A stretch of 64,000 nucleotides of DNA from an uncultured Campylobacterales bacterium (GCA_964560425.1 CAZLLE010000078.1:16303-80302); one strand, 5' to 3'. Positions 7,832 to 41,485 are shown, numbered from the stretch's first letter. Made by a program: numbers and translations. Notes: generated from the letters alone by a model not told the origin.

Positions 7832-7980
7832 TACTAATCCCCACGAAGGAGTATAAATTCAAAACTTAATTCATTCTGAATAGCCATTTTTAAAGTAAAA
7901 TGTTATTTTGTTTTTCGCTTAAAGTGCTATAATTTTTTACTTTTAAAAAAACTCTGTTTTTTAATGTTTGAGGAGTGATT

Positions 7981-17718: not shown

Positions 17719-17724
17719 AACTAT

Positions 17725-17750
17725 AAGGTGTGGTCTTTTCACCACACCTT
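17725..17750. terminator. Bidirectional hairpin between convergent genes, with arms identical to the REP 5' half
   Basis: AAGGTGTGGT-cttttc-ACCACACCTT. It lies between the stop at 17718 (+) and the stop at 17763 (-). Confidence 0.65.
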
Positions 17751-17762
17751 TACTCTAATTTT

Positions 17763-19202
17763 TTATTTATCTTGCAGATACTCATCTATAGAGTTTGCAG
17801 CATCTCTACCCATTCCCATAGCAAGAATAACCGTAGCTTGTCCAAGAGTGATATCTCCACCAGCCCAAACACCCTCTTTTGTCGTTTTTCCTGTTTTTGG
17901 ATCAGCTTCAATATTACCCCATTGATTCAACTTTAAACCTTCAGTTGTATTTGTCAATAGTGGATTAGCACTTGTCCCAATGGAGATAATTGCCAAATCA
18001 CAATCAATATATTCATGTTTACCCTCTATTGCTATAGGTCGTCTTCTTCCCCCCTCATCTGGCTCTCCAAGCTCCATTTTTTGACAATTTATACCTGCCA
18101 ATTTTCCATTGGCATCTCCAATAAATTCTAATGGTGAAGTCAAAAATTTAAACTCTATACCCTCTTGCTCGGCATGATGAATCTCTATATGTCTTGAAGG
18201 GGCCTCCTCTCTTGTTCGTCTATAAACTATAGTTACAGTTTTGGCACCCAATCGAATAGCCGTTCTAGCTGAATCCATAGCTACATTTCCAGCACCCAAT
18301 ATTACTACATTTCTTCCAGGAATAATTGGTGTATCATATTTTGGAAAATCATAAGCTTTCATAAGATTTGCTCTTGTAAGATACTCGTTTGCAGAAAAGA
18401 CTCCACTCAAATCTTCACCAGGAATATTAAGAAAATTTGGAAGCCCTGCCCCAACACCTATAAAAACAGCATCATATCCCATATCATCAAATAGTTCATC
18501 AATATCAATAGTTCTTCCAATTACATTATTACACTCTATCTTTACACCAAGATCTTTAAGAGCCTCAAGCTCATAATCTACAATATCTTTTGCTAGTCTA
18601 AACTCGGGAATACCATATAAAAGTACTCCACCAGCTTTATGAAGAGCCTCATACATAACAACTTCATGACCTTTTTTTGCCAAATCCCCAGCAACAGTAA
18701 TTCCAGCAGGTCCACTACCTACAACAGCAACTTTTTTGCCTGTTGAAGGGGGTATATCAGAGATATTTTTGACACCACTATCTCTAGCCCAATCAGCTAT
18801 GAACATCTCAAGATTACCAATACCTACAGGCTCACTATTTTTCTTTTTACCAACTACACAAACTGCTTCACACTGTATCTCTTGAGGGCAGACTCTACCA
18901 CAAACAGCGGGAAGTGCCGTCTTATCCCACACAGTATTAATAGCTCCATCCAAATCTTCATTTACAATCTGTTCTAAAAAAGCAGGAATATTAATACTTA
19001 CAGGACAACCAATAATACATTGGGGATCTTTACACTGAATACATCTTGCTGCTTCAAGTTGGGCTTCATGAAGACTATATCCAAGAGTTACCTCATCAAA
19101 ACATTTGTTTCTTACTTCAGGGGCCATCTCTGGCATATGCTGTCTAGGAATCTGTCTTCTCTCTTTTTTACTTAGGTATTTTACCTCTTTTTCAATCTCC
19201 AT
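17763..19202 (-). CDS. nfnB: GltD-family NADPH-dependent oxidoreductase, NfnB/SudA-like large subunit
   Basis: N-terminal Cys clusters CIQCKDPQCIIGCP and CGRVCPQEIQCEAVC. Two dinucleotide folds VAVVGSGPAG and VVILGAGNVAMD. Start ATG at 19202 (AGGA 9 nt upstream) is preferred over the TTG at 19208. Confidence 0.8.
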   Translation of the reverse strand: MEIEKEVKYLSKKERRQIPRQHMPEMAPEVRNKCFDEVTLGYSLHEAQLEAARCIQCKDPQCIIGCPVSINIPAFLEQIVNEDLDGAINTVWDKTALPAVCGRVCPQEIQCEAVCVVGKKKNSEPVGIGNLEMFIADWARDSGVKNISDIPPSTGKKVAVVGSGPAGITVAGDLAKKGHEVVMYEALHKAGGVLLYGIPEFRLAKDIVDYELEALKDLGVKIECNNVIGRTIDIDELFDDMGYDAVFIGVGAGLPNFLNIPGEDLSGVFSANEYLTRANLMKAYDFPKYDTPIIPGRNVVILGAGNVAMDSARTAIRLGAKTVTIVYRRTREEAPSRHIEIHHAEQEGIEFKFLTSPLEFIGDANGKLAGINCQKMELGEPDEGGRRRPIAIEGKHEYIDCDLAIISIGTSANPLLTNTTEGLKLNQWGNIEADPKTGKTTKEGVWAGGDITLGQATVILAMGMGRDAANSIDEYLQDK

Positions 19203-19211
19203 CACCAAATC

Positions 19212-23182: not shown

Positions 23183-24694
23183 GTGAAATCTAATAGAGAA
23201 GAAACTGTAGATATTTTGATGATTGCAGAGGGAACTTATCCATATATTAGGGGTGGTGTCTCTAGTTGGATAGATCAAATTATCACAGGAATGCCCGAAT
23301 ATAGTTTTGGTATACTTTTTTTGGGTAGTAAAAGAGAAGATTATGAAGAGACAAAATATGATCTTCCCGATAATGTAAAGTTTTTTGAGACATATTTTCT
23401 TTTTGATCCTTTGGATGTAGATGAACCAAGTGCAAGAAATATCAAAAAAGAGAGCATGGATAGACTCAAAAAGTTTTATCAAAATATCAGACAAAATAAA
23501 AAATTTGATTTTGCTTCATTGATTGATGAAGAGTTACTATCCAAAGATATTACTATAAATGATTTTTTATATGCTGATGAATCATGGGAATTTATCAAAG
23601 AGAATTATCGTAAAAATTGCCCTACTTTATCATTTATAGACTATTTTTGGAGTATCAGAAGCATTCATAGACCAGTATGGCTACTTACACAAATCGCTCA
23701 AAAAATGAATTTTGCAAAAGTTATACACTCACCCTCTACAGGATATGCTGGTTTTTTGGCAACACTTATCTCCAATTTTCATAGCATACCATTTATTTTG
23801 ACAGAGCATGGAATATATATTCGAGAAAGAAAGATGGATATGCATACAAATTCTAGTTTTGAGCTTTACAAATCTGCCCTACAAAAGAGTGTAAAAAGTA
23901 ATGATTATATAAAACAGATGTGGATTAACTTTTTTGAAAAAATGGGATATTTGACATATCAATCTGCTCAAGAGATTTTATCTCTATTTAATGGAGCCAA
24001 AGATCTTCAGATCAAATTTGGGGCTGATGAGAAGCGTTGTCGTGTGATACCAAATGGTGTTGATGTTCATAGACTAAATAAACTTGTATCATTAAGAGAT
24101 CCAACTCCACCAAAAGTTATTACACTTTTAGGAAGAGTTGTATCTATTAAAGATATCAAAACATTTATTCGAGCAATAAGAATTACAGCAGATCGCTTTC
24201 CTGATGTACAAGGGTGGGTTGTTGGACCAACTGATGAAGATGTAATTTATGCTGATGAGTGTAATAGAATGGTTGAATCTATGAACCTAAAAGATAATAT
24301 AAATTTTTTGGGTTTTCAAAAGATAGATGATATTTTACCAAAAAGTGGTATTTTGACTTTGACCTCTATTAGTGAAGGTATGCCCTTGACAATATTAGAG
24401 GGTTTTGCATCAGGACTCCCATGTGTTGCTACAGATGTTGGAAGTTGTACGGAGTTGATATATGGAGCATTAAATGAAGAGGATATTGCTATTTCAAAGG
24501 CGGGTGAAGTTGTATCTGTTTCAAATCCATCAGAGTTAGCAGAGGCATATATCATGCTTTTAGAAGATGTAGATTTATGGAAAAAATATCAAAAGAGTGC
24601 ATTACAAAGAGTAAATACTTTTTACACTCAAGAGATCTTTTTTAAGCAATATAGAGGAGTTTATGAAAAGGCATTGGCACAATGGCAGGGATAG
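23183..24694 (+). CDS. pelF: PelF glycosyltransferase (GT4 family with PelF-type N-terminal domain)
   Basis: N-terminus DILMIAEGTYPYIRGGVSSWIDQIITGMPE closely matches the PelF signature as I recall it. GT4 C-terminal EGMPLTILEGFASGLPCVATDVG. GTG start follows GGAGG. Confidence 0.88.
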   Translation: MKSNREETVDILMIAEGTYPYIRGGVSSWIDQIITGMPEYSFGILFLGSKREDYEETKYDLPDNVKFFETYFLFDPLDVDEPSARNIKKESMDRLKKFYQNIRQNKKFDFASLIDEELLSKDITINDFLYADESWEFIKENYRKNCPTLSFIDYFWSIRSIHRPVWLLTQIAQKMNFAKVIHSPSTGYAGFLATLISNFHSIPFILTEHGIYIRERKMDMHTNSSFELYKSALQKSVKSNDYIKQMWINFFEKMGYLTYQSAQEILSLFNGAKDLQIKFGADEKRCRVIPNGVDVHRLNKLVSLRDPTPPKVITLLGRVVSIKDIKTFIRAIRITADRFPDVQGWVVGPTDEDVIYADECNRMVESMNLKDNINFLGFQKIDDILPKSGILTLTSISEGMPLTILEGFASGLPCVATDVGSCTELIYGALNEEDIAISKAGEVVSVSNPSELAEAYIMLLEDVDLWKKYQKSALQRVNTFYTQEIFFKQYRGVYEKALAQWQG

Positions 24695-26058
24695 GGTTTG
24701 AATTAGAAAAATCTCTCAAAAAAGAGAGTCTTTTATCTTATATAAAAGTATATGGTTACTCCGCAATACTTAGTGCTGGAGCTTGGATGGTCTCTATCAT
24801 CTCCATTATTATGGTAGGTTATATTAGTCTAAATTCATATCATAATATACAAGAGACCACACAATTTCAACTAATCGTAACTTATGCGTTTATGTTCTCT
24901 TCAAGTTTTATGCTCTCAGGTTTTTTGCAACTACCCTTGACAAGATTTATAGCTGATAGAGTATATGAAGAGAAATATGAAGAGGTTTTACCTGCATATT
25001 TTGCAACAATTTTTATGGTTCTAATTGCTGGAATATTTATCATGATGCCTATAACATTTTATATGCTTCCAAATGAATCTCTAATATTCAAAATATTAAC
25101 ACTAAATGTATTCATGATAGTAAGTTTAGTATGGGTTGCAAATGTACTAGCATCTAGTCTAAAACGCTATAAAATGGTTGTATTCTCCTATTTTGTTACA
25201 TATTCCTCTATTATTATTTTGACCTACTTTTTTGGTGAAAATAGTATCTTTTTGATGGGAGCTTTTTTTATTGGTAATTTTGCACTCTTTACCATTTTGA
25301 CAATGCTTATAGTCAAACAATATCCATCAAACAAATTAATTAGCTTTGAGATATTTAGAATAAAAACCTTTTATTGGAGATTAGCAGCCGCTGGTTTTTT
25401 CTATAATCTAGGAGTTTGGATAGATAAAATTATTTTTTGGTATCACCCAATGACTGGTTACTCTGTAGTAGGAAACATGAAAGCATCTATTGTTTATGAT
25501 CTTCCTATTTTTCTAGCTTATTTAGCTATTATGCCCGGAATGGCTATATTCTTTTATAGATTAGAGGTGGACTTTACAAGAAGTTTTCAAGGCTTTTTCA
25601 ACTCTATTATAGAAGGCAAACCTCTCTCAACTATAGAGCATTATAAAAATGCTATGAATAGCAATGTAAGAACAATTATCAAAGAGATTATTGTAGTACA
25701 AAGCATGATAAATATTTTTTTATACAATACAGTACCATATATTTTTGAAAAACTATATATCCCAAATTTATATCTTGATCTTTTTTATATTCTATTAATT
25801 GGTGCTACACTACAACTCTGCTTTATGACCATGCAAGCACTTCTATTTTATATTGACAAGAGAATAGAGACACTCTTTTTATCAATTATATTTTTGATTT
25901 TAAATGCAACATTTACATATATATCTATTAATTTAGGTCCACAATATTTTGGTTATGGATATGCTATATCTCTTTTAATAGTCTTTATTATCTCACTCAT
26001 TATTGTACGAAAAAAGTTTTGGAGAATCGATTATGAGACTTTTATGTTACAAAAGTAG
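24682..26058 (+). CDS. pelG: PelG polytopic membrane protein (putative Pel exporter)
   Basis: MAGIGFELEKSL start is typical of PelG. About 12 hydrophobic segments, 458 aa. 13-nt overlap with the pelF end. Confidence 0.82.
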   Translation: MAGIGFELEKSLKKESLLSYIKVYGYSAILSAGAWMVSIISIIMVGYISLNSYHNIQETTQFQLIVTYAFMFSSSFMLSGFLQLPLTRFIADRVYEEKYEEVLPAYFATIFMVLIAGIFIMMPITFYMLPNESLIFKILTLNVFMIVSLVWVANVLASSLKRYKMVVFSYFVTYSSIIILTYFFGENSIFLMGAFFIGNFALFTILTMLIVKQYPSNKLISFEIFRIKTFYWRLAAAGFFYNLGVWIDKIIFWYHPMTGYSVVGNMKASIVYDLPIFLAYLAIMPGMAIFFYRLEVDFTRSFQGFFNSIIEGKPLSTIEHYKNAMNSNVRTIIKEIIVVQSMINIFLYNTVPYIFEKLYIPNLYLDLFYILLIGATLQLCFMTMQALLFYIDKRIETLFLSIIFLILNATFTYISINLGPQYFGYGYAISLLIVFIISLIIVRKKFWRIDYETFMLQK

Positions 26059-26911
26059 GCTAATGTTATACTCTATAATTCTACTAATCATGATTATATT
26101 TGTGGTAGTAATGCGGATAAATTATTTTAATCCCAAAAGTGCAATAGTCTATTATGGGAATAATCCTAATTATAAAGTTTTAGATTCATTTGATATTAGT
26201 ATAGTAGAGTCAGGACATATAAATAGTGGTGATATTGAATTTCAGAAATATAAAAAAAAGATGTTTGCTTATGTTAGTATAGGAGAAGTAGAAAAAAATA
26301 GATCCTATTATCAAGAGATTAAAAAGGAGTGGATTTTAGGAGAAAATAGACTCTGGAAAAGCAAACTATTAAATCTTTCAAACAGAGATTATCAAAACTT
26401 TTTAATCGATAATGTCATCGGTTCTCTTATTAAAGATGGATATGAAAATTTCTTTTTTGATACAGTAGACTCTTATCATCTTCTATCTCTAAATGATAAA
26501 TTAAGAGATAAATATGAAAATGATATTGTTATTTTTTTAAAACATCTTAAAACAAAATACCCAAACATCAAAATAATTTTAAATAGAGGATTTGAGATTA
26601 TAGATAGAGTCTATCCCTATATTGATGGAGTTTTATTTGAATCACTATTTTGTGGCTTAAATAATAAAACCTTAGCATATAGAGACATTCCACCAAAAGA
26701 TAGAGAGTGGCTTTTGGGAAAAGTTAAAAATATTCAATCATATAAGCTATTTGTAATAGCCCTAGATTATCTACCACCAAATCAAGATAAAAAAGCCAAA
26801 AATATTATACAAAAGATCAAAGCCTTAAATATAATTCCGTATATAGGTGAAAAAGATTTACAAAACATAGGCATATCTACAAAAGGAACAAGTAATGCAC
26901 AACTTCATTAG
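26033..26911 (+). CDS. Membrane-anchored PelA-hydrolase-like glycoside hydrolase (GH114/GH166-type TIM barrel)
   Basis: AYVSIGEVEKNRSYY and GYENFFFDTVDSY match the endo-alpha-1,4-polygalactosaminidase / PelA N-domain pattern. N-terminal TM helix. Start moved to ATG 26033 (RBS GGAGAATCG), which overlaps the pelG end. Confidence 0.7.
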   Translation: MRLLCYKSRLMLYSIILLIMIIFVVVMRINYFNPKSAIVYYGNNPNYKVLDSFDISIVESGHINSGDIEFQKYKKKMFAYVSIGEVEKNRSYYQEIKKEWILGENRLWKSKLLNLSNRDYQNFLIDNVIGSLIKDGYENFFFDTVDSYHLLSLNDKLRDKYENDIVIFLKHLKTKYPNIKIILNRGFEIIDRVYPYIDGVLFESLFCGLNNKTLAYRDIPPKDREWLLGKVKNIQSYKLFVIALDYLPPNQDKKAKNIIQKIKALNIIPYIGEKDLQNIGISTKGTSNAQLH

Positions 26912-27758
26912 TACAAAAAGAGAGGAGTTCATTCAATCAGATGTAGATATAAATGCAATAGGAATTAAAGATATTATATTTTTATTTATTGCCTTCTCTT
27001 TTGTACTCTATATACTTTTTCCAAAAGAGACATTAAAAGAGAAGGTACTCAAAGAGACAAAAAGTAACGATCTTGCATTAGTTTATATAGAAAACATGAT
27101 CAATTTTGATTATAAAAACTATGAATTACTACTTCATTATGCAGATATGCAATTTAAAGATGAAAATTTTGCAGCTGTTAAAGGTATTGTTGGAACACTA
27201 TTAAAGTTAGACAATAAAGAGACACAAAAGAGTGCTTTAATTCTTGGAGAAAAGCTTTTTAAAAGAGAGTATTTTCAATTAGAGGAGCAAGAAGATAAAG
27301 AGAAACTACTAAAAGAGTATCAAGATATTCTTAAAGATATGGTGTTAATCTCAGAAGATGAGCAATTTCAAAATGATATTCTTAGTTATTTTAGTACAAG
27401 TAAAGATAGAGATGAATATATAAAACTTCTAGAAAAATTATCAAAAATTGACGATAAATGGGAATTAAAACTTACAGAATACTACATGGCAAATAACAAA
27501 CTTCAAAAAGCACTAATATTATATAAGAAAAGAATTTCCAAAGATATACCATATAAAGAGAAAAAAGTAGTTTTCAAAAAAATTATCAAAGTACTTATGT
27601 TTGGAAGTTTTTTTGATGAAGGAACTAAAATAATGCAAAAGTATGAAAACCTTTTTATAGAAGATGAAGAGATTTTTGAAGAGATAATTCGATTTTATAT
27701 CTCTGCGGGGGAGGAGAAGAAGGCTAGAAAGTATATCTTAAAGAGAGGGAAATATTAA
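26895..27758 (+). CDS. Single-pass membrane protein with helical-repeat (TPR-like) domain, possibly the detached N-terminal part of PelB
   Basis: One TM helix (IIFLFIAFSFVLYILF) followed by all-helical Lys/Glu-rich repeats. 17-nt overlap with the upstream gene. Sits directly before the PelB-like porin gene. Confidence 0.45.
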   Translation: MHNFISTKREEFIQSDVDINAIGIKDIIFLFIAFSFVLYILFPKETLKEKVLKETKSNDLALVYIENMINFDYKNYELLLHYADMQFKDENFAAVKGIVGTLLKLDNKETQKSALILGEKLFKREYFQLEEQEDKEKLLKEYQDILKDMVLISEDEQFQNDILSYFSTSKDRDEYIKLLEKLSKIDDKWELKLTEYYMANNKLQKALILYKKRISKDIPYKEKKVVFKKIIKVLMFGSFFDEGTKIMQKYENLFIEDEEIFEEIIRFYISAGEEKKARKYILKRGKY

Positions 27759-27833
27759 ATATAGACATTTTAAACCAATATAAACAATTTTAATTTATTG
27801 CCGATTTGCAGTAAATATCTTAAGGGTTTTTAG

Positions 27834-30800
27834 ATGCAATTGGTTACTATATTTATATTGATATTTGTTACACAGCTTTATGCAACACAATCAAAAGATA
27901 TATGTTATAACATTCAAATAAGCTCTTTTAGCAGTGCTTCACTAGAGGATATCAAGAAGCTATCTTTTCCAAAAGCTTGTAAGATTATTGAAAAAGGTGG
28001 AATCTATACAATAAAATGTGAATGTGATACAGAAGCAAATATACGAAAAAAACTTCCCTATTATCAAAAAAATGTACCGGGTGCATTTGTTACTAAAACA
28101 GAAAAAAAGTTATTTAATCAAACTCTAGATACAAAGAGAGAACCAACTACACAAAAAGTAGCTCAAAAAATGGATAAGAAGAGGGAAAATCCAGATAAAA
28201 AAGAGCAAAAAAAGAGAGAAACACTAAATGAACTCATGTATAAAGTGTTTATCTATAATAATGATCTCAAAAATGCACAAAAAGTAGCACTAGCAGCACT
28301 AAAAAGAGATCCAACCAATATCATGTGGAGAAAATATTTAGCAGATGCCCTAAGTTGGAGTGGTAAAACAAAAGAGGCTTTTAAACACTATACTTACATA
28401 TACAAGAAAAATAGAGCAAAACAAAATATTAAATCCAAAATAGAGGGATATGGTAGCTATGACAAATATTTTATGCTTTTGGGCAAAGTTTACTCTAATC
28501 CAAAAAACCAAAATAGTATTAATAAGTTTATAAAAGAGGCTGAAAAGCTAGGCAACTCAAAAGAGGCAGTTATCGCCTTGGATAAACTATACAATAAGAC
28601 AAAAAGTGTACCCGCACTAAAGACTAGTGCTAATCTATATCTGAAATTAGGGTTCAAAAAAGAGGCTATGAGACGATTCAAAATTTTGGAAAAAGCAAAA
28701 CTTTTGGATATAAAAACAGCTATGACACTATCTAGAGTATTTTTTGAAGAGAAAAAATTTTCTGATTCTCTAAATGTCCTATTGAGTGTAAAACATTTAG
28801 CAACAATCAAAGATCGAGAGTATTGGCTGCTATTAGTGGATATATACTCTTATCTCAAAAAAGATGAAAAAGCTGCAAAACTATTGAGAGTATTATGTAA
28901 TAATCATGAGTGTAAAAAAGGAGATTATGACAAACTAATATCATTTTATTCCAAAAAAGATAAAAATTTTAGCCTCAAAATAGCACTAAAAGCATTTCGT
29001 CAACTAAAAGAGAGTTCATACTTTTTCTCTTTTACAAAAATGAGTTTAGAAAAAAAAGATACAGATGCAGTAATTAAAGCAATAAGATCACTTACACCTA
29101 AAGAGGAGAGAGAGTATAAAAAACTTCCACTATTTTGGCTCACTATGGCATCACTAAACAATCAATTAGGATTAACTAAAAAAGCAATACTCTCATATCA
29201 ACAAGCACTAAATCTAGACCCCGAATCTATAGAAATCTTAACTCAATATAGTTGGTATATAATGGACAAAAACAGCATACCAAATCTTCAAAATATAGTT
29301 CACAAAATAGAACAGAGAGCTACAGATGATAAAAAACTATATATTCTTGCCGCAGCAATCAATTATAAGCTCAATCATATACAAAAAGCTTACATATATT
29401 ATACAAAAGCAGTACAAGCAGAGCCAGATAATGTTAGTCTAAAATTAGATTATACAAATTTACTTCGTGTAATGAGGGAAAAAGAGTATGCCGATAAAAT
29501 TACATATAATATTTATAACTTGCTACAAAATCAGATGAAAAATAGACCAAATCTACTAAAAGAGAAAGAGTTTCTAACAAACTATTTAAGAGCTTCAATA
29601 TCTTTTATACCTGCACAAAACTATAGAGAAGTTATGAAATATGCCAAAACGATTTTAGATAAAGAGATATATACAAACATGGATATTTCATGGAAATTAT
29701 ATACAAAAGATGGTGATAGCGTTCAATATTTGAGTAGAAAGCTCAAAAAAACAGAAGTTTGGTTGGAATCATATTTAACAATGAGAAGCAATAATATATA
29801 TGCAATGAGAGAGCTTCTATATAAATATGGAGCAATCTTACCACTTGTAGACAAAATTAGTATGGAGCTAAAAACTAAACAGATTGGAGTTGCAAGAAGA
29901 GAGATATTTGAGGCACTAGAAGAGATACCTCAAAACCAATCACTCTATCGTACAAAATATGATATAGACACACAATATGGAAATAAATTTAATAGTGAAA
30001 TAGGTTATGAAGCTCAAGGAGATCTAAAAAGAGAATATGTAAAGATTGAAAATATTCACCATTTGGCAAATAAATACTATCTAGGAGCATCATTCAATTA
30101 TGGAAAAAACCACTCTGATAAGATAGATTTATCTAATAATATGTCTGAAGATTCTACAGCAAAATTGTGGCTAAAAATGTTAATGAACAATGGTTATATA
30201 GAAGCAGGAGGAGGATATAGTGATAAATACACTCAATATCCTCAATATTTTTTCAATCTTTATAATAAACTAACCAACAAATTGAGTATAAAATTGGAAT
30301 TTGAGAAAAGCAAAAATGCAAATGAGACCTTAGATTTAAGACTAAAAGGTAAAAAAGATTATTCAGCTATGGGTATTCGATATCAGTTTAATCAAAGATT
30401 AGCCTTTGAAGCAGAGGCATCAAATAGTAATTATAAATGGCAAAAAGGTGATACTTTAGGTAACTCCCAAAGATATAATATTCAAATGCAACAAAAAATT
30501 AAATTTAGTTATCCAGATATCCTTTTTAGAGAGTATCTAACTATAGCCAACTTTAACGATAAAGGGATAAAAGAGCTACCTGACAACTATATAGAGGGTG
30601 GGTTAGGAGTACAAATAGGTATGGGTTCACTCAAGAGATATAGTAGTAGCTGGAGACCTTATGCTGACTTATCAACCTCATATCATGATACCTTTGGATT
30701 ATCTTTTGCAGGTCAATTTGGGGTCTGTGGAAAATTTATTGGTGATGACTATCTAAACCTATCTTTAAACTATAGTCGTTCAGCAGTTGATAAAAATGAG

Positions 30801-30842
30801 GAGTTATGGCTATTGAAACTTACCCATAGTTATTTATATTAA
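27834..30842 (+). CDS. pelB: PelB-like TPR scaffold plus C-terminal outer-membrane beta-barrel, with an N-terminal SPOR-like module
   Basis: Signal peptide. About 600 aa of TPR-like repeats (for example AILSYQQALNLDPESIE and AYIYYTKAVQAEPDN). The C-terminal 300 aa has alternating beta-strand patterning and ends with an aromatic residue (...THSYLY). Confidence 0.7.
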   Translation: MQLVTIFILIFVTQLYATQSKDICYNIQISSFSSASLEDIKKLSFPKACKIIEKGGIYTIKCECDTEANIRKKLPYYQKNVPGAFVTKTEKKLFNQTLDTKREPTTQKVAQKMDKKRENPDKKEQKKRETLNELMYKVFIYNNDLKNAQKVALAALKRDPTNIMWRKYLADALSWSGKTKEAFKHYTYIYKKNRAKQNIKSKIEGYGSYDKYFMLLGKVYSNPKNQNSINKFIKEAEKLGNSKEAVIALDKLYNKTKSVPALKTSANLYLKLGFKKEAMRRFKILEKAKLLDIKTAMTLSRVFFEEKKFSDSLNVLLSVKHLATIKDREYWLLLVDIYSYLKKDEKAAKLLRVLCNNHECKKGDYDKLISFYSKKDKNFSLKIALKAFRQLKESSYFFSFTKMSLEKKDTDAVIKAIRSLTPKEEREYKKLPLFWLTMASLNNQLGLTKKAILSYQQALNLDPESIEILTQYSWYIMDKNSIPNLQNIVHKIEQRATDDKKLYILAAAINYKLNHIQKAYIYYTKAVQAEPDNVSLKLDYTNLLRVMREKEYADKITYNIYNLLQNQMKNRPNLLKEKEFLTNYLRASISFIPAQNYREVMKYAKTILDKEIYTNMDISWKLYTKDGDSVQYLSRKLKKTEVWLESYLTMRSNNIYAMRELLYKYGAILPLVDKISMELKTKQIGVARREIFEALEEIPQNQSLYRTKYDIDTQYGNKFNSEIGYEAQGDLKREYVKIENIHHLANKYYLGASFNYGKNHSDKIDLSNNMSEDSTAKLWLKMLMNNGYIEAGGGYSDKYTQYPQYFFNLYNKLTNKLSIKLEFEKSKNANETLDLRLKGKKDYSAMGIRYQFNQRLAFEAEASNSNYKWQKGDTLGNSQRYNIQMQQKIKFSYPDILFREYLTIANFNDKGIKELPDNYIEGGLGVQIGMGSLKRYSSSWRPYADLSTSYHDTFGLSFAGQFGVCGKFIGDDYLNLSLNYSRSAVDKNEELWLLKLTHSYLY

Positions 30843-33606: not shown

Positions 33607-33635
33607 AATGCTTCCAACTCTATGTTGGAAGCATT
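33607..33635. terminator. Bidirectional terminator hairpin between convergent genes
   Basis: AATGCTTCCAAC-tctat-GTTGGAAGCATT, perfect 12-bp stem. Confidence 0.75.
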
Positions 33636-33637
33636 CC

Positions 33638-36600
33638 CTAGTGAACTACTAAACTACTTGCCTCTTTGCTATAATCATAAATCCTACTATCATACATCGC
33701 TTCACAAAATGAAGCTGGTATTTGACACTCTCCCTTAGTAGTAACACGAAGTGGTACAAAAAAAGTAGTTAAACTATTTTTTGCTAAGTTTATAAAAGTC
33801 AATACCCTATCATCTCTAATATCTTGATATGAAGGATAGAAATTTTTACTATTTTGAACAGTAGTGGGACGAGTAGAAGAGAATAATCTCTCATTGACAA
33901 TTTCAAAACATGAAGGAGCTCTTTGAACAATAGCAATATTTTCTAATTTATCTCTATTTTTGAGCAATATTTTGGCATAAATCATATCTCCCAATTTAAA
34001 ACTATTAATATCCCTACCATTTTCATCTACAAATCTACTTTTGATATTGATTACTTTATTAAATGATCTATTTGTAGCATCTGTTTTTAAAGGTAAATAT
34101 CCTGAAGCTTCTATAGTATAGTTGAGCATTTTACCTTTTGGATCTATTACAATTGTATCAGAAATTAATTTTTCATATATTGTACTCTCTTTGGTTATCT
34201 CTTGAGTATTACTATTTAGAGTTAGTTTTAGATCAATTTTATCATCTTGATTATCTTTATAATACTCACCAATAGCACGAAGAGCAAAAGCTTTATCTTG
34301 TGTGGAGTATAAATATTTAAAATTTTTGGCAACTTTTTCAAGTAGATTAAATGCTATTTTATCTTTTCCAAAAGTTTTGAGATGAATAAAAAGGGCAAAA
34401 GATAAATTACGACTTTTTGAGTAGAAATTTCCACCAAGTAGATTTTTATCTTTCATCCTAGAGTAATCAAAATTTTGAATTTTTTTTGAAATATCCTCAA
34501 ATGCACTATTCAGATTAGCATTTTTCAAAATATAAGCCATCATGTAGAGTCCAACAATACCACCATCTTTATAAAAAGCATTATCATACATGCTATTTAT
34601 AATAGATTGATCTATTTTATTTTCAGATGAGAGCAAAAAAGAGGCATAAAGTCTATCAAAATATGAGTATCTATCCCTACCATGTTGAGCAATATCCATA
34701 AGAGCATTATATATATTATCTATTACATGAGAAGGAACATTAAACCCACCATTTTTCAAAGAGAGTAAAATATCAGATGCATATACAGAGGCATAAGGAT
34801 TTATCGTTCCATAAGGTTCCCAGTATGCAAAATCACCATTATCATATTGTAAATTGGCAAGTTTAGCTATTCCCTCATTGATAAACATCTCTCTATCTTT
34901 TAGAAGATTTTTACTATATAGTGAATTATCATTTTTAACAAATGAGTTTAGATATAAAAGAGCTAATAACCTAGAACTTGTCTGTTCGCTACAACCATAA
35001 GGATAGCCAATTAGATAATCTAAACTACCTTTTAATTGTGCTTTATATGTTTTTGAAAGATTAATTTTTACTTTTGTACCCTCTTTTGAAAAGTACTCCT
35101 TTGGTATTTTGATAGTAGTTTTTTTGGATATTTCACCTCTAAAAACTTTAGTTTGTAGAGAATTTGCACTATAAATAGGCAACTCTATAGAGTGATAAAA
35201 TATCTTATTATCTACTTTTGCATTAATTTTTAACTCACCTTTTCCCAAACTTTTAGCATATAGATCAACCTCAAAAACTTTTGAGCTATTTGCAGGTATT
35301 TTAATATTTTGTGGTAAATTTTTCAAAATTAATTGACTTGAGCTATTAAAATCCAAAAATGCTTCAATATCTTTTGAAGTGGTATTAAAAAACCGGACAG
35401 GAACTTTTAACTTATCACCAACCAAAGCAAATCTTGGATAAGTAGGTTTGAGTATAACATCATCACGAACAATCAAATCTCTCCATGAAGCACCAATATT
35501 ATCTTTATCAATAGCAATTGCCACTATTTTAGCCGAACCATTAAATGCAGGAATTTTGAGATCAACACTAGCAAACCCCTCATCATCACTCTTTATCAAT
35601 TTTGACCAATATAAAAATGGTTTAACTCTTTTGGCTGCATTTTCGGGAGAGAGATGTTTTTGGCTCATGAGCAGTTCATCACCACCATCTGCACCAAACT
35701 CCAACAGTTTACCTTTGGTTTGATAGTGCATTAACTCATCATATAGATCATAAAAAGCCACTTTTTGCATAGGAGTAAGAGTAAAAAAATCAAAAGGCGT
35801 TGGTACTTTTTGATCTATAATTTGTAAAATCCCCTCATCTACTAGGGAAATTAATAGATAAGATTTTTTATCACAACTAACCGATATAGTAATATCATCA
35901 TGAGAGTGAGAAATTTTTGGTGCTTCAATAGATAGATTAATCTTATGCTCTGTTCTATCTGATTGAATAAACTTCGATCCAAAAGCTCTAAATGGAACTA
36001 TAGCCGAAGCTTTATCAGATGATCGAACAATAGTAACACTCAAATATATACCATCTCTCATATCAAAATCAATAGGTATCTCTAGTGATGCACTCCCTTG
36101 TTTTATAGAAACAACTTTATGAAAATAGATTTTATCACTCTCAAGAGTAACCAAAGCACGACCTTTTATAATGGGAGATTTAAAGCTAACTTCTAAACTA
36201 TCCCCTTTTTGATATAAAATATCATCTACTTCTATCTGTACCTTTTCTATCTCATTAGTTGGAGCGATATTATCATACTCCCAACCACTTACAAAAAACT
36301 CTTGCGAAGCACTGTGCAAACCTTCATTATCATAGATTTCTAAAATATAGTTTCCACTAGCATCAACTATTTTATCTATAACCTCTCCAGCTTCTATATC
36401 AAATCTATCAACCTCTTCAATCTCTTTTTCCCACTTATAATAACCTCTAGCATCATAAAAGTAGTGCCATATCTGTTTTTTGATTACTGCTTGAAGAGTT
36501 CCTTGTTTTGTATCTCCACTTATAGGATCAATCAAAATAGTTTGAGCTTTTAGCTTCTCTCCTCTCTCCAAATTATCATTTGATATCTTTACTCCAACCA

Positions 36601-38356
36601 TAGAAGAGTATGGATAGATATCTACACTTTTATAAGATGAAACCTCCCTACCATCATCAAAAACACTCATTGTAATTTGAGCTTTTAAAATTGAAGGAAC
36701 TCTTTGATCTATTTTGGTGTCAAAGAAAAATTTTGCCTCTCCACTATTTGAGAGTTGAAAATCTTTTCGTATATCCAGATAATTTAGCTTGTTATCCTGA
36801 GCCAAAAGTATATTTGTAAAACTAAAACCCTTATAACGCTCATGAGTATAATCTTTGGAAAAAGCATTCAGTTTTGCCTCAACATTCAAATCAGACGCAG
36901 GAGCACCAAAAAGATAACTACTTTTCAAAGTCCCACTAATTGGTTCATTTTTTAAGAAAATCTCTTTATCAACAATAATTTTGTTTTTAATCTTTTGAGG
37001 CATAAATGTCTCTACAAGGAAGAGCTCAGAGCCAATAACTTTATCCCCTAACTTGACACTTATCTCATAAGTACCAGTTTTATACTCATGAGGAATATCT
37101 AAAACAATCTCTATTGCACCAACACTATTACATTTGTGTACCTTTTTATATATAGTTCTATAATCAGGTGATCTCACATCAACTCTTATAGGTATATTTT
37201 GAGCTGATTTATAATCTTTATCTTTTAATACAATTAAGATTTTTGCCTCTGAATCAGGACGAACAAGTCTACTTTGTAGATATATCCATGCTTTGTATCT
37301 ATTTTCTATAGAGTTTTTATTTGATATTAAAAACTCATTCAAAGAGTCATTAAGTGTTAAAAAGTTTTGATCATTTGAGGTTTTAACTACTATAGATTTA
37401 GGATGTTTACTAAATAGATCTTTTTTATTGATGATACAGATACCATTTTTGTCACTTTTCCCTGAAGCCAAAAAAACATTTTTATCAGAAAATATCTCTA
37501 CTTTTGCATTTTTGATAGATTTAGTAGAACTCAAAGATGCCAAAGAGATAAAAACTTGATCTTTTGATATCTTTGCACTAATCCCAATATCACTAAGATA
37601 TATAACTTTCTCTACAGATTTTTTACCAAATTTCATCACAACTCTAAAGATACCACTCTTATATTTATCAGTAAAAGATTTTAGAGAAAATTTATGTTTT
37701 ACAAACTCATTTTTTGTATTACTTAGAGTAACTATTTTTGAAAAAACCTCTACAGATGATTTATAGACCTTATCTCTATCACCTTCTTGAAAATTGATAA
37801 AATAGCGAAAATTATTATCTGGTACTTTTTCAATAGAGATATTTACCTCATCAAGATTAACACTCTCAAATCCAATCTCTCCAATAGAAGATAGATAGGG
37901 TCTATTATCCTCAAAATGTAATGCACTTTTTCTATCGCCCATGAGAATATCAAACGATATATCATCTCTAAGTTGATATTGATAACTATCTTTTAACCCT
38001 CTTTTTAGAGTAAGCCTATATTTTTGATTAGATTTAAAATCACCAATAACATCTATATAAGTTTCACTTTTATCATTTAAGTGTAATCTATCTCTTTCAC
38101 CATAATCTATATACTTACTATCTGTAAGAGAGAAGCGTTTAACTCCCTCTATTTTCATATAAGATTTAATTTTAGAATCTGAATAAAAATCACCACCAAA
38201 ATATATTCGTATACCTAACCTTCCATCATCAAAGCCCACAAAATGAGGCTGATCAAAAAAGACCATAGCTTTTCGCTTACTATCAAGTTTAAATGGATTT
38301 GCAAAAACAGAAGAGACCATAAAAAGCAGAAGTAGAGTTAGGATTTTTTTAAGCAT
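33638..38356 (-). CDS. Bacterial alpha-2-macroglobulin family protein (YfhM/ECAM-like) with thioester motif
   Basis: 1572 aa with repeated beta-sandwich (MG-like) regions. Thioester context GYPYGCSEQTSSRLLAL (CSEQ at nt 34982-34993). Signal peptide ends VFA-NP with no lipobox Cys. A PBP1C gene is nearby. Confidence 0.88.
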   Translation of the reverse strand: MLKKILTLLLLFMVSSVFANPFKLDSKRKAMVFFDQPHFVGFDDGRLGIRIYFGGDFYSDSKIKSYMKIEGVKRFSLTDSKYIDYGERDRLHLNDKSETYIDVIGDFKSNQKYRLTLKRGLKDSYQYQLRDDISFDILMGDRKSALHFEDNRPYLSSIGEIGFESVNLDEVNISIEKVPDNNFRYFINFQEGDRDKVYKSSVEVFSKIVTLSNTKNEFVKHKFSLKSFTDKYKSGIFRVVMKFGKKSVEKVIYLSDIGISAKISKDQVFISLASLSSTKSIKNAKVEIFSDKNVFLASGKSDKNGICIINKKDLFSKHPKSIVVKTSNDQNFLTLNDSLNEFLISNKNSIENRYKAWIYLQSRLVRPDSEAKILIVLKDKDYKSAQNIPIRVDVRSPDYRTIYKKVHKCNSVGAIEIVLDIPHEYKTGTYEISVKLGDKVIGSELFLVETFMPQKIKNKIIVDKEIFLKNEPISGTLKSSYLFGAPASDLNVEAKLNAFSKDYTHERYKGFSFTNILLAQDNKLNYLDIRKDFQLSNSGEAKFFFDTKIDQRVPSILKAQITMSVFDDGREVSSYKSVDIYPYSSMVGVKISNDNLERGEKLKAQTILIDPISGDTKQGTLQAVIKKQIWHYFYDARGYYKWEKEIEEVDRFDIEAGEVIDKIVDASGNYILEIYDNEGLHSASQEFFVSGWEYDNIAPTNEIEKVQIEVDDILYQKGDSLEVSFKSPIIKGRALVTLESDKIYFHKVVSIKQGSASLEIPIDFDMRDGIYLSVTIVRSSDKASAIVPFRAFGSKFIQSDRTEHKINLSIEAPKISHSHDDITISVSCDKKSYLLISLVDEGILQIIDQKVPTPFDFFTLTPMQKVAFYDLYDELMHYQTKGKLLEFGADGGDELLMSQKHLSPENAAKRVKPFLYWSKLIKSDDEGFASVDLKIPAFNGSAKIVAIAIDKDNIGASWRDLIVRDDVILKPTYPRFALVGDKLKVPVRFFNTTSKDIEAFLDFNSSSQLILKNLPQNIKIPANSSKVFEVDLYAKSLGKGELKINAKVDNKIFYHSIELPIYSANSLQTKVFRGEISKKTTIKIPKEYFSKEGTKVKINLSKTYKAQLKGSLDYLIGYPYGCSEQTSSRLLALLYLNSFVKNDNSLYSKNLLKDREMFINEGIAKLANLQYDNGDFAYWEPYGTINPYASVYASDILLSLKNGGFNVPSHVIDNIYNALMDIAQHGRDRYSYFDRLYASFLLSSENKIDQSIINSMYDNAFYKDGGIVGLYMMAYILKNANLNSAFEDISKKIQNFDYSRMKDKNLLGGNFYSKSRNLSFALFIHLKTFGKDKIAFNLLEKVAKNFKYLYSTQDKAFALRAIGEYYKDNQDDKIDLKLTLNSNTQEITKESTIYEKLISDTIVIDPKGKMLNYTIEASGYLPLKTDATNRSFNKVINIKSRFVDENGRDINSFKLGDMIYAKILLKNRDKLENIAIVQRAPSCFEIVNERLFSSTRPTTVQNSKNFYPSYQDIRDDRVLTFINLAKNSLTTFFVPLRVTTKGECQIPASFCEAMYDSRIYDYSKEASSLVVH

Positions 38357-38417
38357 AATTTTCCTTTAATTGCATTGTACCTTAAAAATAATAAGTAATT
38401 TTATTAGCAGCATATTT

Positions 38418-38446
38418 AAAGGTGTGGTGAGGACACCACAGCCTAC
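38418..38446 (+). repeat. REP element copy 1 (overlaps the RAYT stop codon)
   Basis: AAAGGTGTGGTGAGGACACCACAGCCTAC, a GC-rich imperfect palindrome in an AT-rich background. Confidence 0.85.
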
Positions 38447-38976
38447 TCAAATTCTACATCATGATTAAAGTCTCCCCATGAATCATCATACAATCCCATT
38501 TTGACAAATTTACCAAATGATGAATATTTCCAATCATTCGTCTCCAAAACCAATCCATGTTTTACTGGATTAAAATGGATATAATCAAACCTAATATTAA
38601 AATCTTTTTCATCCCTTATTGTATGTTCATAATATCTACTTTGCCAAATACCCGAATGTCCTCTTTTAATTTGAGAACTACTCAAACTCTTTTTTGCATG
38701 ATTTTTAAAATCTTTGTCCAAACCATATAAAAAACTTCTTTTGATATGTGAAATAATTTTGGGATACTCTTTTGCAATTTTAGGAGTAATAATCATATGA
38801 AAATGATCAGGTAAAATCACAACAGCTTCAATTTCATAATCATATTTTAATTTGCTAAGTGCAAAACTTTTTCGCAATAAATTTATATTATGGATCAAAA
38901 TTGGATTTCGATTATGTGTAACAATCGTCAAGAAACAACTATGATTCTCTTCAAATATCCGTGTGTAATTTGCCAT
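38443..38976 (-). CDS. REP-associated tyrosine transposase (RAYT, IS200/IS605 Y1-type HUH enzyme)
   Basis: HUH motif PDHFHMIIT, catalytic-Tyr region SGIWQSRYYEHTIRDE, and YIHFNPVKHGLV. Flanked on both sides by REP copies. Confidence 0.85.
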   Translation of the reverse strand: MANYTRIFEENHSCFLTIVTHNRNPILIHNINLLRKSFALSKLKYDYEIEAVVILPDHFHMIITPKIAKEYPKIISHIKRSFLYGLDKDFKNHAKKSLSSSQIKRGHSGIWQSRYYEHTIRDEKDFNIRFDYIHFNPVKHGLVLETNDWKYSSFGKFVKMGLYDDSWGDFNHDVEFE

Positions 38977-39017
38977 TTATAATTTTAGCATATTGTTTTG
39001 GTATTCATAATTTTTAT

Positions 39018-39053
39018 AAAGGTGTGGTCAGGAGACCACAGCCTACAAATTAC
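39018..39053 (+). repeat. REP element copy 2
   Basis: AAAGGTGTGGTCAGGAGACCACAGCCTACAAATTAC. Confidence 0.85.
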
Positions 39054-39126
39054 TTTTTGTTGATGTCACATAATAATTATTGGCATTATTATCAAAATCT
39101 TTTTTAATAACTGATTCTAATTCTGC

Positions 39127-39197
39127 TGAAGGTGTGGTCAGGAGACCACAGCCTACAAATTACAATATTCCGTAGGCTGTGGTCTCCCGACCACACC
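39127..39197. repeat. REP doublet in inverted orientation (REPIN-like)
   Basis: AAGGTGTGGTCAGGAGACCACAGCCTAC-aaattacaatattcc-GTAGGCTGTGGTCTCCCGACCACACCTT. The arms differ at one position. Confidence 0.85.
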
Positions 39198-39242
39198 TTT
39201 ATAAAATATGATTTTTAAAGATTTTTGATTATCCTGATGCTT

Positions 39243-39261
39243 ATGTAACCTAAAGTTACAT
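39243..39261 (-). terminator. Short hairpin downstream of pbpC
   Basis: ATGTAAC-ctaaa-GTTACAT, 32 nt past the pbpC stop. Confidence 0.4.
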
Positions 39262-39292
39262 TTTACCTTTTAAAATAAGAAACAAGCTTGAA

Positions 39293-41485
39293 TTACTCTG
39301 ATTTGATAGTTATATTATGAATCTTCAATCTAGCCCTATCATCTAAACACCCTATCACATGATCTCCCTCTTCCAAATACAGATATATTGATCTATTAGA
39401 AGTTGATTTTAGAGGTTTTTTATCATCAATAAACCACAAAATATCTTGCTCTTTTGAGAAAGAGGAGCAGTTAAACTTAATTTTTCTAAACTCTTTTGGT
39501 AAATCTCTATTTTGAGTAATTATACTATGGTTAGAAGGAGATGTAATCATTGGTTTATAACTATTCCATACACCAAAACATGAATTATTTTTCAGATCCA
39601 AAATAGATTTAATCACTTTTGTTTTTATCAAAAAAGCCAAAGTTTCAGCTCTTATCAACTCACATGGTAATTTTACTTCAACACCTTTTATTCTCAAATC
39701 TTCTAAAGAGGTTTTGCACTTATCTATTTTGATAGCATCAATACAACGAACACTTTTTATAATATTTTTTGGTTTTTCAAACCATTTTAGTTGCTGTTTT
39801 CTACCCAAATAGTGAAAAATCTCATGAACTACACCCGAAGCACTATTTAGTCCTGTCAAATTTTGAGTTTTTTTACCATTAAAATTACCAAACCAAACCC
39901 CAACACTATATTCAGGTGTATACCCTATAGTAAACATATCTTTTGATGAGGCAGAAGTACCAGTTTTAAAAGCGACTTTCGGGACATCAGCCGTAGATTC
40001 CCAATAACCACTTAGATCCATCCTCGTAGCATCACTAAGTATTTCACTAACTAAGTAGGAAGACTCCTTAGAGAGAATTTTAACTCCAACACTATTTCTA
40101 CTATCACTCATAAGAAAACAAGCATCTTTTTTGACTCCACTATTTGCCAAAGCACTATAAAGAAGAGTTAAATCAAACAGAGATATACCACATCCACCAA
40201 GGGCAATAGAGTCTCCATAATAAAACTTTTCTCTATTAATAGACTTTACACCTGCCTTTTTTAATAATTCATAAAGAGAGTTATCTCTTAGAACATGGTT
40301 GAGAGATACAGCAGGAATATTAAGCGAATATTGAAGAGCCTCCTCAACACTTATAAGACCAGTGGAGCGTTTATTAAAATTTTTGGGAGAGTAGCCTTGA
40401 AAAAAGAGATCAATATCATAAATTTGCTGTTTGGGAGTGATAAACCCCTCATCAAAAGCAAGAGCATAAATAAATGGCTTTAGGGTAGAACCTGCACTTC
40501 TAATCATGCTTACACCATTATTTTCTCCATCATGATCTTTATCATCAAAATTATGTGAACCAACATAAGCCAAAACTTGCATAGTAGGATTATGAATCAC
40601 CACAGCAGAAGCATTATAAGCATCAAAAGATTTTAATTTTTCACTCTGCCTAGATAGAGACTCTTTGACAAATTTTTGCAATTTCAAATCAAGTGTCGTA
40701 TAAATTTGACTGTTCTGAATCCTAATTTGATTAATAAAATGAGGAGCATAAAAAGGTATTTTTATACGCTTTGATATAATATCTTCCAATTTTGCCCTAT
40801 TATACTGATCTTGATTAATCACTCCTTTATTTCGCAGATTTTCCAAAACTCTATCACGGCGTTTTTCTAAATTTTTTTGTCTATCTGGTCTATTTGCATT
40901 TGGATTTTTTGGAATTGTAGTCAAAATAGCAATTTGAGAAATTGTCAAATCATCTAGTTGTTTTTGAAAATAGAACATAGAAGCACTTTTAACTCCCTCA
41001 ATATTACCACCATATGGAGCAAGATTAAAATATAGAGCTAATATCTCATCTTTTGAAAAGTGTAATTCCAATTGAAGAGCATTAAAAATCTCAATTAATT
41101 TATTAAAAATAGTCCTATCTCTTCGATACATCATGCGACTAACTTGCATAGTAATAGTAGAAGCTCCAACTACTCTTTTTCCTATAGTATTTTGAAAAAT
41201 AGCTCGAACAATAGAGAAAGGATTAATCCCAAAGTGATAATAAAAGTATTGATCTTCAAAAGTAATAACACTTTTTTTAAGAAGAGAGGGAATCTCTTTT
41301 GAAGAGATAGAAAAACGCCAAAATCCATCAGAACTTAATTTTAATCTCAAAGGTTTAGAATTCCTATCGTAAATTATAGTTGATGAACATTTGAAGAGTT
41401 TAGTTTTATCTATTGGAAATATAAGATCAACAATTAAAAAAACAACCAAAACAGATAAAATAAAAAATATAAACTTTTTATACAA
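39293..41485 (-). CDS. pbpC: Penicillin-binding protein 1C (bifunctional transglycosylase/transpeptidase-like)
   Basis: GT51 motifs EDQYFYYHFGINP and GASTITMQ. Transpeptidase motifs SAGSTLKP (SxxK), SLN and KTGTS. 730 aa, TTG start, N-terminal TM anchor. Confidence 0.88.
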   Translation of the reverse strand: MYKKFIFFILSVLVVFLIVDLIFPIDKTKLFKCSSTIIYDRNSKPLRLKLSSDGFWRFSISSKEIPSLLKKSVITFEDQYFYYHFGINPFSIVRAIFQNTIGKRVVGASTITMQVSRMMYRRDRTIFNKLIEIFNALQLELHFSKDEILALYFNLAPYGGNIEGVKSASMFYFQKQLDDLTISQIAILTTIPKNPNANRPDRQKNLEKRRDRVLENLRNKGVINQDQYNRAKLEDIISKRIKIPFYAPHFINQIRIQNSQIYTTLDLKLQKFVKESLSRQSEKLKSFDAYNASAVVIHNPTMQVLAYVGSHNFDDKDHDGENNGVSMIRSAGSTLKPFIYALAFDEGFITPKQQIYDIDLFFQGYSPKNFNKRSTGLISVEEALQYSLNIPAVSLNHVLRDNSLYELLKKAGVKSINREKFYYGDSIALGGCGISLFDLTLLYSALANSGVKKDACFLMSDSRNSVGVKILSKESSYLVSEILSDATRMDLSGYWESTADVPKVAFKTGTSASSKDMFTIGYTPEYSVGVWFGNFNGKKTQNLTGLNSASGVVHEIFHYLGRKQQLKWFEKPKNIIKSVRCIDAIKIDKCKTSLEDLRIKGVEVKLPCELIRAETLAFLIKTKVIKSILDLKNNSCFGVWNSYKPMITSPSNHSIITQNRDLPKEFRKIKFNCSSFSKEQDILWFIDDKKPLKSTSNRSIYLYLEEGDHVIGCLDDRARLKIHNITIKSE

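Follow-up and report, generated by a model that had tools for sequence, protein, structure and literature searches.

We analysed a 64-kb stretch of DNA from an uncultured Campylobacterales bacterium (hereafter the window; positions are counted along its whole length), in which a pbpC gene, whose product is PBP1C (penicillin-binding protein 1C), and a gene for a thioester-type alpha-2-macroglobulin (A2M) lie on the same strand, parted by repetitive extragenic palindromic (REP) elements and a gene for a REP-associated tyrosine transposase (RAYT). In our judgement the locus is probably a clade-specific type I A2M/PBP1C periplasmic defence operon into which a RAYT/REP block has been inserted, and whose A2M is probably still expressed. 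It is a known system in a conserved, little-described configuration, combined with an ordinary REP/RAYT insertion, i.e., a modest variant.

A RAYT/REP block fills the pbpC-A2M junction

The region is A+T-rich (~30% G+C) and carries three minus-strand open reading frames (ORFs), all co-directional and intact, in the order pbpC, RAYT, A2M. A sequence-only reading of this DNA had proposed an A2M and a PBP1C gene on one strand with ~940 bp of REPs plus a RAYT gene between them; the pairing is borne out by the ORFs and by their domain and model matches, and the distance from pbpC stop to A2M start comes to 936 bp (38357-39292). The main features of the locus are:

39293..41485, minus strand: pbpC, 730 aa
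38408..39305, minus strand: inserted block, ~0.9 kb (boundaries +/-15 nt), from alignment with the empty site of L001
38443..38976, minus strand: RAYT gene, 177 aa, intact
38357..38407, minus strand: retained native A2M leader, ~50 bp, alignable with the L001 spacer
33638..38356, minus strand: A2M gene, 1572 aa

The block is defined by comparison with a related locus, L001 (A2M 86% and pbpC 88% identical to those of the window), which has an empty 54-bp spacer without RAYT that aligns to both flanks. By blastn, homology to L001 is limited to window 39330..39291 on the pbpC side and 38405..38374 on the A2M side; taking alignment and blastn together, it extends up to ~39306-39291 and resumes from ~38407. 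Read from pbpC, the block comprises a ~95-nt segment, a REP doublet, a single REP, the RAYT gene and a last REP. Homology to other RAYT modules (blastn, window 39209..38445) runs from the REPs through the RAYT gene, and the ~95-nt segment, which bears a weak hairpin, has no blastn match in L001 or in the other RAYT loci. Relatives of the RAYT occupy unrelated contexts, flanked by the same REP family: those of 76% identity (L021/L022) sit beside an SMC_N-like gene, and one of 68% identity (L023) sits between an unknown gene and a TrkA_N gene. The L001 spacer also contains ~13 nt that match both insertion flanks (window 39291-39303 and 38393-38405); the two window copies agree at 9/13 positions, in A+T-rich DNA, and this ambiguous match could reflect either microhomology or duplication of the target.

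L001 and the other RAYT-free loci are devoid of REP remnants (within 6 mismatches), and spacers are short as well in L002 and L009, which are more distant. Because the outgroup spacers are short and L001 is free of REP remnants, insertion is far more parsimonious than repeated precise loss; as judged from these alignments, the RAYT/REP block is a lineage-specific insertion of ~0.9 kb. Comparing RAYT presence and absence in related genomes thereby upholds the physical separation that the sequence-only reading had described, with the L001 empty site supporting insertion.

We propose that the ancestral state of the subfamily had pbpC first and A2M next, overlapping or within ~60 bp, and that in the window lineage the ~0.9-kb block would have landed at the junction of the pbpC stop and the A2M leader. 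Such an event would have altered the last residues of PBP1C (the C-terminus ITIQ-stop in L001 is ITIKSE-stop in the window) and spared ~50 bp of A2M leader, ribosome-binding site included; we infer that it was recent and nearly neutral.

The paired PBP1C and A2M proteins

The 730-aa ORF passes the PBP_1c equivalog TIGR02073 (609.6 bits, cut-off 494.2) and matches Pfam Transgly (2.3e-48) and Transpeptidase (2e-19), with a weak BiPBP_C match slightly below its cut-off (23.3 versus 26.8 bits). Its domain order is N-terminal membrane anchor, GT51 glycosyltransferase, transpeptidase and BiPBP_C, with GT51 motifs EDQYFYYHFG at residue 77 and GASTITMQ at 107, and transpeptidase motifs STLK at 333, SLN at 387 and KTG at 507. 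Identity amounts to 30% with PbpC of E. coli (E=6e-92) and to 88% with the L001 counterpart. By these matches, it is a class A penicillin-binding protein 1C.

Seven Pfam domains are recognizable in the 1572-aa ORF (bMG3, MG2, bMG5, bMG6, A2M_BRD, A2M and bMG10), all exceeding their cut-offs except bMG6, which is weak. Residues 188-1556 align with the structures of E. coli YfhM (ECAM) and Salmonella A2M (Sa-A2M) with E=1.5e-61, and GYPYGCSEQTSS falls on YPYGCLEQTTS of ECAM/Sa-A2M, such that GCSEQ (residues 1121-1125) lies opposite GCLEQ of ECAM; the CSEQ thioester motif itself spans residues 1122-1125 (34993..34982). The structure alignment also places a bait-like segment near residues 884-912. 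The N-terminus reads MLKKILTLLLLFMVSSVFA followed by NP, a typical type I signal peptide pattern (38356..38300) with the VFA/NP cleavage site placed by rule of thumb; the first 45 residues contain zero Cys, hence the lipobox that marks class I (PMC3735191) is absent. The ORF is thus assigned as a thioester (type I) bacterial A2M, the thioester itself being predicted, and the protein is predicted to be soluble in the periplasm and not lipid-anchored.

On the proteins, the sequence-only reading was accurate. It had named a PBP1C with GT51 and SxxK/SxN/KTG, as TIGR02073 and the STLK/SLN/KTG motifs confirm; a thioester-type A2M with GCSEQ at 34982-34993, where CSEQ is indeed encoded; and a type I signal peptide (VFA-NP) without lipobox, in keeping with the lack of Cys. 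The alignment to ECAM that it had proposed brings both the thioester pocket motif and the bait-like segment into register.

We observe a further difference at the A2M N-terminus. The remaining clade members (1780-1810 aa) all have, after the signal peptide, a ~195-aa segment with faint Big_5 matches that is missing from the window A2M (at residues ~16-20) and from that of L001 (L001 4069-4140); roughly two Ig-like domains have apparently been lost in frame. Since the shortening is common to the RAYT-free L001, it predates the RAYT insertion. Truncation of A2M by the insertion was considered and rejected: L001 is equally short, and the protein has an ECAM-like length and its own signal peptide.

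The RAYT gene and its REP elements

The 177-aa ORF passes NF047646, the REP-associated tyrosine transposase model (143.9 bits, cut-off 80), matches Pfam Y1_Tnp, and falls below the IS200 equivalog cut-off (25.8 versus 55 bits). With its HUH motif (HFH at 58), its tyrosine motif (YIHFNP at 132) and 1824 homologues, mostly in Campylobacterota, it is by model and motif a REP-associated tyrosine (HUH/Y1) transposase. At its start (38977-38990) no Shine-Dalgarno sequence is visible, and only 5 nt separate the ATG from the end of an extended -10-like element, TGCTAAAAT, so that the mRNA of the RAYT gene may lack a leader.

The REP is a 26-mer, GTAGGCTGTGGTCTCCTGACCACACC, with a GTAG head followed by an imperfect palindrome. 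Four copies (<=3 mismatches) occur in the 64 kb, all within 38421-39197 around the RAYT gene, where chance would predict none:

39172-39197, plus strand: REP copy, 26-mer match, doublet member
39131-39156, minus strand: REP copy, 26-mer match, doublet member
39129..39199: REP doublet (REPIN-like), two inverted REPs 15 nt apart with 28-nt arms, 96% complementary (I3)
39021-39046, minus strand: REP copy within the 46-nt direct duplication, hairpin of -15.8 kcal/mol
38421-38446, minus strand: REP copy with 2 mismatches, hairpin of -15.7 kcal/mol

The doublet is the dominant structure of the spacer, folding as RNA into a 31-bp hairpin (-60.1 kcal/mol, z=-13.5). A 46-nt direct duplication (family D1; 39008-39053 and 39118-39163, 91% identity) runs through the REP array, the outermost REP pair around the RAYT gene is inverted, and the GTAG head of the terminal REP (38421..38446) provides the RAYT stop codon. 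The same REP family lies beside related RAYTs but is low-copy, its exact pattern matching on eight metagenome contigs, one of which is this same locus.

Elsewhere in the window, a perfect hairpin (AAGGTGTGGT-CTTTTC-ACCACACCTT, 17723-17748) followed by a T-run separates two convergent ORFs (16933-17718, plus strand; 17763-19208, minus strand). It holds the REP stem core and misses the GTAG head, and the choice is between a bidirectional terminator and a relic related to the REPs. Searched with Rfam at gathering thresholds, the window yields zero RNA families.

Expression across the filled junction

The genes are co-directional and the first canonical terminator lies past A2M; most likely, therefore, A2M continues to be expressed, by read-through, from a retained proximal promoter, or both. 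A terminator scan found no intrinsic terminator-like site on the minus strand between pbpC and A2M, and no U-tract follows any spacer hairpin. Two hairpins bear on the question, the second being the only terminator-like site on the minus strand between 33400 and 41900:

39243..39261, minus strand: weak A+T-rich hairpin, 8-bp stem, -6.5 kcal/mol, z=-2.8
33607..33635, minus strand: hairpin resembling an intrinsic terminator, with a U-run, immediately past the A2M stop, 12-bp stem, -17.8 kcal/mol, z=-6.1

The first is the hairpin that the sequence-only reading had assigned to pbpC as its own. It does exist at 39243-39261, but it is weak (4/200 shuffles fold equally well), runs into AAGCAUCA with no U-tract, and lies inside the inserted block; it is therefore neither ancestral to pbpC nor a credible terminator. 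As for the REP doublet, its most likely role would be that of a 3' stabiliser or partial attenuator after pbpC. Within the retained leader, a -10-like TACAAT (38379..38374; TATAAT in L001) precedes a ribosome-binding site, AAAGGAA (38367..38361). TATAAT-like boxes are also contained in the other 45-58-bp spacers of the sub-clade, which is weak evidence in A+T-rich DNA, and the TACAAT box is put forward as a candidate A2M promoter only.

The alternative with most in its favour, in line with the sequence-only reading, holds that the pair has been functionally uncoupled by the RAYT/REP insertion: transcripts begun at the pbpC promoter would stop at the hairpin or REP structures, and A2M would be expressed from its own or a RAYT-associated promoter, or be silenced. 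The spacer of 936 bp, against <=58 bp in most relatives, and a doublet of -60 kcal/mol placed ~95 nt past the pbpC stop are what such a model would predict, although the hairpins lack U-tracts, no terminator-like site separates pbpC from A2M and all genes run in one direction. A -10-like box kept upstream of A2M would likewise suit an independent promoter, but the nearest relatives have TATAAT-like boxes in spacers of 45-58 bp, and partial independence may predate the insertion. Compared with its flanks, A2M is enriched in single-nucleotide polymorphisms (SNPs; p=2e-5); against this, all three assemblies encode a full-length, intact A2M, which differs by 6 synonymous and 5 amino-acid changes. 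Taking both sides together, we consider functional uncoupling unlikely.

The selection data stand as follows. Measured against L001, dN/dS is 0.144 for A2M and 0.143 for pbpC, i.e., equal purifying selection. Between the window and L004 (a near-identical locus described below), 13/21 SNPs in 24.7 kb fall in A2M (33917-36505; binomial p=2e-5), with clusters at 34823-34804 and 33980-33917; L027 was also compared. Among the near-identical assemblies the A2M differences are the 5 amino-acid and 6 synonymous changes given above, and pbpC has zero SNPs. The clustering may represent recombination tracts or diversifying selection on a protease trap.

Several points weigh against a soluble A2M that is still expressed from the interrupted operon. 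The dN/dS values span the whole branch to L001 and are blind to relaxation since the insertion, and the concentration of SNPs in A2M could mean relaxed or diversifying selection. Boxes similar to TACAAT arise by chance in 70% A+T DNA, in which a sigma-70 promoter scan was uninformative (50 sites versus 49.8 expected). The perfect 31-bp hairpin could halt or strongly attenuate transcription even without a U-tract, and Rho-dependent termination is possible in the untranslated stretch. Solubility, for its part, is read only from the missing Cys and the rule-of-thumb cleavage site, and by analogy with MagD the A2M could be tethered through a partner.

Gene order and anchoring across relatives

An exact-sequence lookup of the window A2M gave no match (the database copy, P0001/L004, differs at 5 residues); P0001 and its relatives therefore served as the A2M query set in place of the exact window sequence. 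Relatives are loci encoding an A2M of 37-86% identity, in each of which pbpC was found by tblastn, and 15 of them (L001, L002, L004-L009, L011-L013 and L015-L018) have enough upstream DNA to be informative. These span unclassified Campylobacterales, Sulfurimonadaceae, Sulfurovum, Sulfurospirillum and two Desulfobacterales metagenome-assembled genomes (MAGs). In 15/15 the gene next to A2M on its upstream side, on the same strand, is pbpC, and in 11 of the 15 the gap is -14 to 58 bp:

L011, L016: -14 bp
L015: -4 bp
L012, L017: about 0 bp
L018: 3 bp
L005/L006: 9 bp
L009: 45 bp
L001: 54 bp
L002: 58 bp

The identities of pbpC and A2M to those of the window co-vary over the loci (88/86, 61/57, 51/47, 43/37 and 38/40%), which points to the pair being inherited as a unit. 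CxEQ is kept in 25/25 clade A2Ms and a lipobox is found in 0/24 full-length ones. By comparison, in E. coli K-12 yfhM precedes pbpC with 0 bp between them and the YfhM protein carries a LALAGC lipobox, and Campylobacter armoricus has a lipoprotein-type A2M (25% identical) then pbpC, with a 4-bp overlap. The "inverted order" of the sequence-only reading is hence correct relative to E. coli but is no local rearrangement, and its non-lipoprotein A2M, true against E. coli, is a clade-wide feature; on this sampling, pbpC-first order and a lipobox-free A2M are conserved traits of the subfamily and not events at the window locus. That lipobox absence might be unique to the clade was considered and ruled out, as many distant thioester A2Ms also have no strict lipobox match.

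Two junctions are enlarged in other ways. That of L007 (an uncultured Sulfurovum; 7403-8000) measures 598 bp and bears an opposite-strand ORF for a 176-aa lipoprotein-like protein (LFLGCSS); that of L008 (a Campylobacterales MAG; 1026-1833) measures 808 bp with no convincing ORF. A search of both found no RAYT and no REP or other inverted repeats. Compared with the window, the L007 and L008 junctions are independent enlargements, so that strict coupling of the pair is seemingly not obligatory.

Could the RAYT module instead be ancestral at the junction and have been precisely lost from L001 and the other relatives? According to published work (bioRxiv 10.1101/2021.07.10.451892), RAYTs are single-copy and vertically inherited, keep to one extragenic space in a given species and show no evidence of transposing themselves; such non-jumping behaviour would favour ancestry, as would the existence of enlarged junctions in L007 and L008. 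These two junctions contain neither RAYT nor REP-like inverted repeats, however; at least 11 clade loci, including outgroups to the window/L001 pair, have the short gaps listed above; the RAYT-free loci have no REP remnant; and homologous RAYT modules sit at other loci. We regard ancestral loss as very improbable. At this locus the extragenic space of the RAYT is conserved within the population and not between related lineages.

The best matches are metagenome-assembled Campylobacterales, and the pbpC-RAYT-A2M structure also occurs in ENA ERZ27262694 (L004) and JGI 3300028908 (L024/L027) at 99.86-99.92% nucleotide identity. An assembly artefact, i.e., a chimeric join at repeated REPs, is effectively excluded: REPs are repeats, and most RAYT-bearing database contigs are ~1 kb, such that assemblies often break there, but the identical structure is found in two further assemblies, with flanks collinear over 9.5-24.7 kb in the three independently assembled metagenome contigs, the window included.

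Two Desulfobacterota loci (L013 and L018, from Desulfobacteraceae/Desulfobacterales MAGs) have the pbpC-first, lipobox-free cassette, with A2M 40-42% and pbpC 38-48% identical to those of the window. This distribution suggests that the pbpC-A2M cassette has been transferred between phyla as a unit.

As to the surroundings of the pair, gene calls on L004 identify a Pel-type exopolysaccharide cluster (window ~23640-30840, plus strand) just past a convergent 887-aa ORF that adjoins A2M. Its products include PelG, a PelF-like glycosyltransferase, a PelA-like protein of family GH114 and a PelB-like TPR/beta-barrel protein; both the 887-aa ORF and the PelB-like neighbours recur in L001.

Comparison with known systems

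In E. coli (yfhM, encoding ECAM, with pbpC) and Salmonella (Sa-A2M), the same two families are adjacent on one strand, and these A2Ms have in common with that of the window a multi-MG-domain architecture, a bait-region domain, a CxEQ thioester and MG10; the alignment covers ~1370 residues, and identity is only ~25-30%. The E. coli pair is gapless and ordered yfhM then pbpC, with a LALAGC lipobox and CLEQ, whereas the window has pbpC then A2M, split by the RAYT/REP block, with CSEQ and no lipobox. MagD of Pseudomonas aeruginosa (type II) resembles the window A2M in having a signal peptide without lipobox, as befits a periplasmic protein free of a lipid anchor (PMC3735191). MagD is nevertheless without CxEQ and without a pbpC neighbour, being encoded in the six-gene magABCDEF operon and held at the inner membrane by MagB; the window A2M has a thioester and a pbpC partner, and no mag genes.

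The inserted block shares with REPIN-RAYT systems (E. coli TnpA-REP, Pseudomonas Group 2/3) an HUH/Y1 transposase, GTAG-head REPs and an inverted doublet; further points of likeness are the single RAYT in 64 kb and an extragenic space that stays the same within the population. Unlike in those systems, its REPs are very low-copy (4 in 64 kb, all beside the RAYT gene), the terminal REP, in direct and not inverted orientation, runs over the RAYT stop codon, and related lineages do not share the RAYT space. IS200/IS605 elements have the same Y1/HUH fold family (Pfam Y1_Tnp) and hairpin-forming flanks; the window RAYT differs in scoring under the IS200 cut-off, in being apparently single-copy and in its association with dispersed REPs.

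Discussion

Class I bacterial A2Ms are defined as pbpC-adjacent with a lipobox and CLEQ, and class II (MagD) as being without both cysteines; the class I definition and the periplasmic defence hypothesis are given in the same sources (PMC3735191; PMC5764988). In the literature on bacterial A2Ms that we covered, which did not include the neighbourhood survey of Budd et al. 2004, we found no mention of gene order. Judged by its conserved motifs, this clade has class I chemistry and a PBP1C partner without a lipid anchor. In the model that we favour, the A2M would be exported via its type I signal peptide without a lipid anchor, retaining bait region and CxEQ, and would presumably trap proteases entering the periplasm, which would cleave the bait and then be captured covalently through the thioester; PBP1C would meanwhile repair peptidoglycan.

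Basic understanding of A2M/PBP1C and of REPIN-RAYT systems is unchanged by these observations. With more doubt than confidence, we advance a bolder proposal: that the pbpC-first, non-lipidated thioester A2M is a distinct third A2M class, moving as a two-gene unit between Campylobacterota and Desulfobacterota, and that the filled and empty sites record gain or relocation of a RAYT-plus-REP module. If true, the third class would combine type I chemistry and a PBP1C partner with a type II-like lack of lipid anchor, and the module gain or move would contrast with the current description of RAYTs as non-jumping; in any case, the locus provides filled and empty sites of a RAYT module as a clean pair.

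For the defence pair, the locus represents a second conserved arrangement, found in Campylobacterales and Desulfobacterales from the environment and not covered by the published class I description; with the pbpC-first unanchored form one could ask if function depends on gene order and on tethering to the membrane. The RAYT/REP insertion and the two other enlarged junctions amount to a natural experiment in which tight coupling has been broken and neither gene has decayed, which bears on whether A2M and PBP1C need co-expression.

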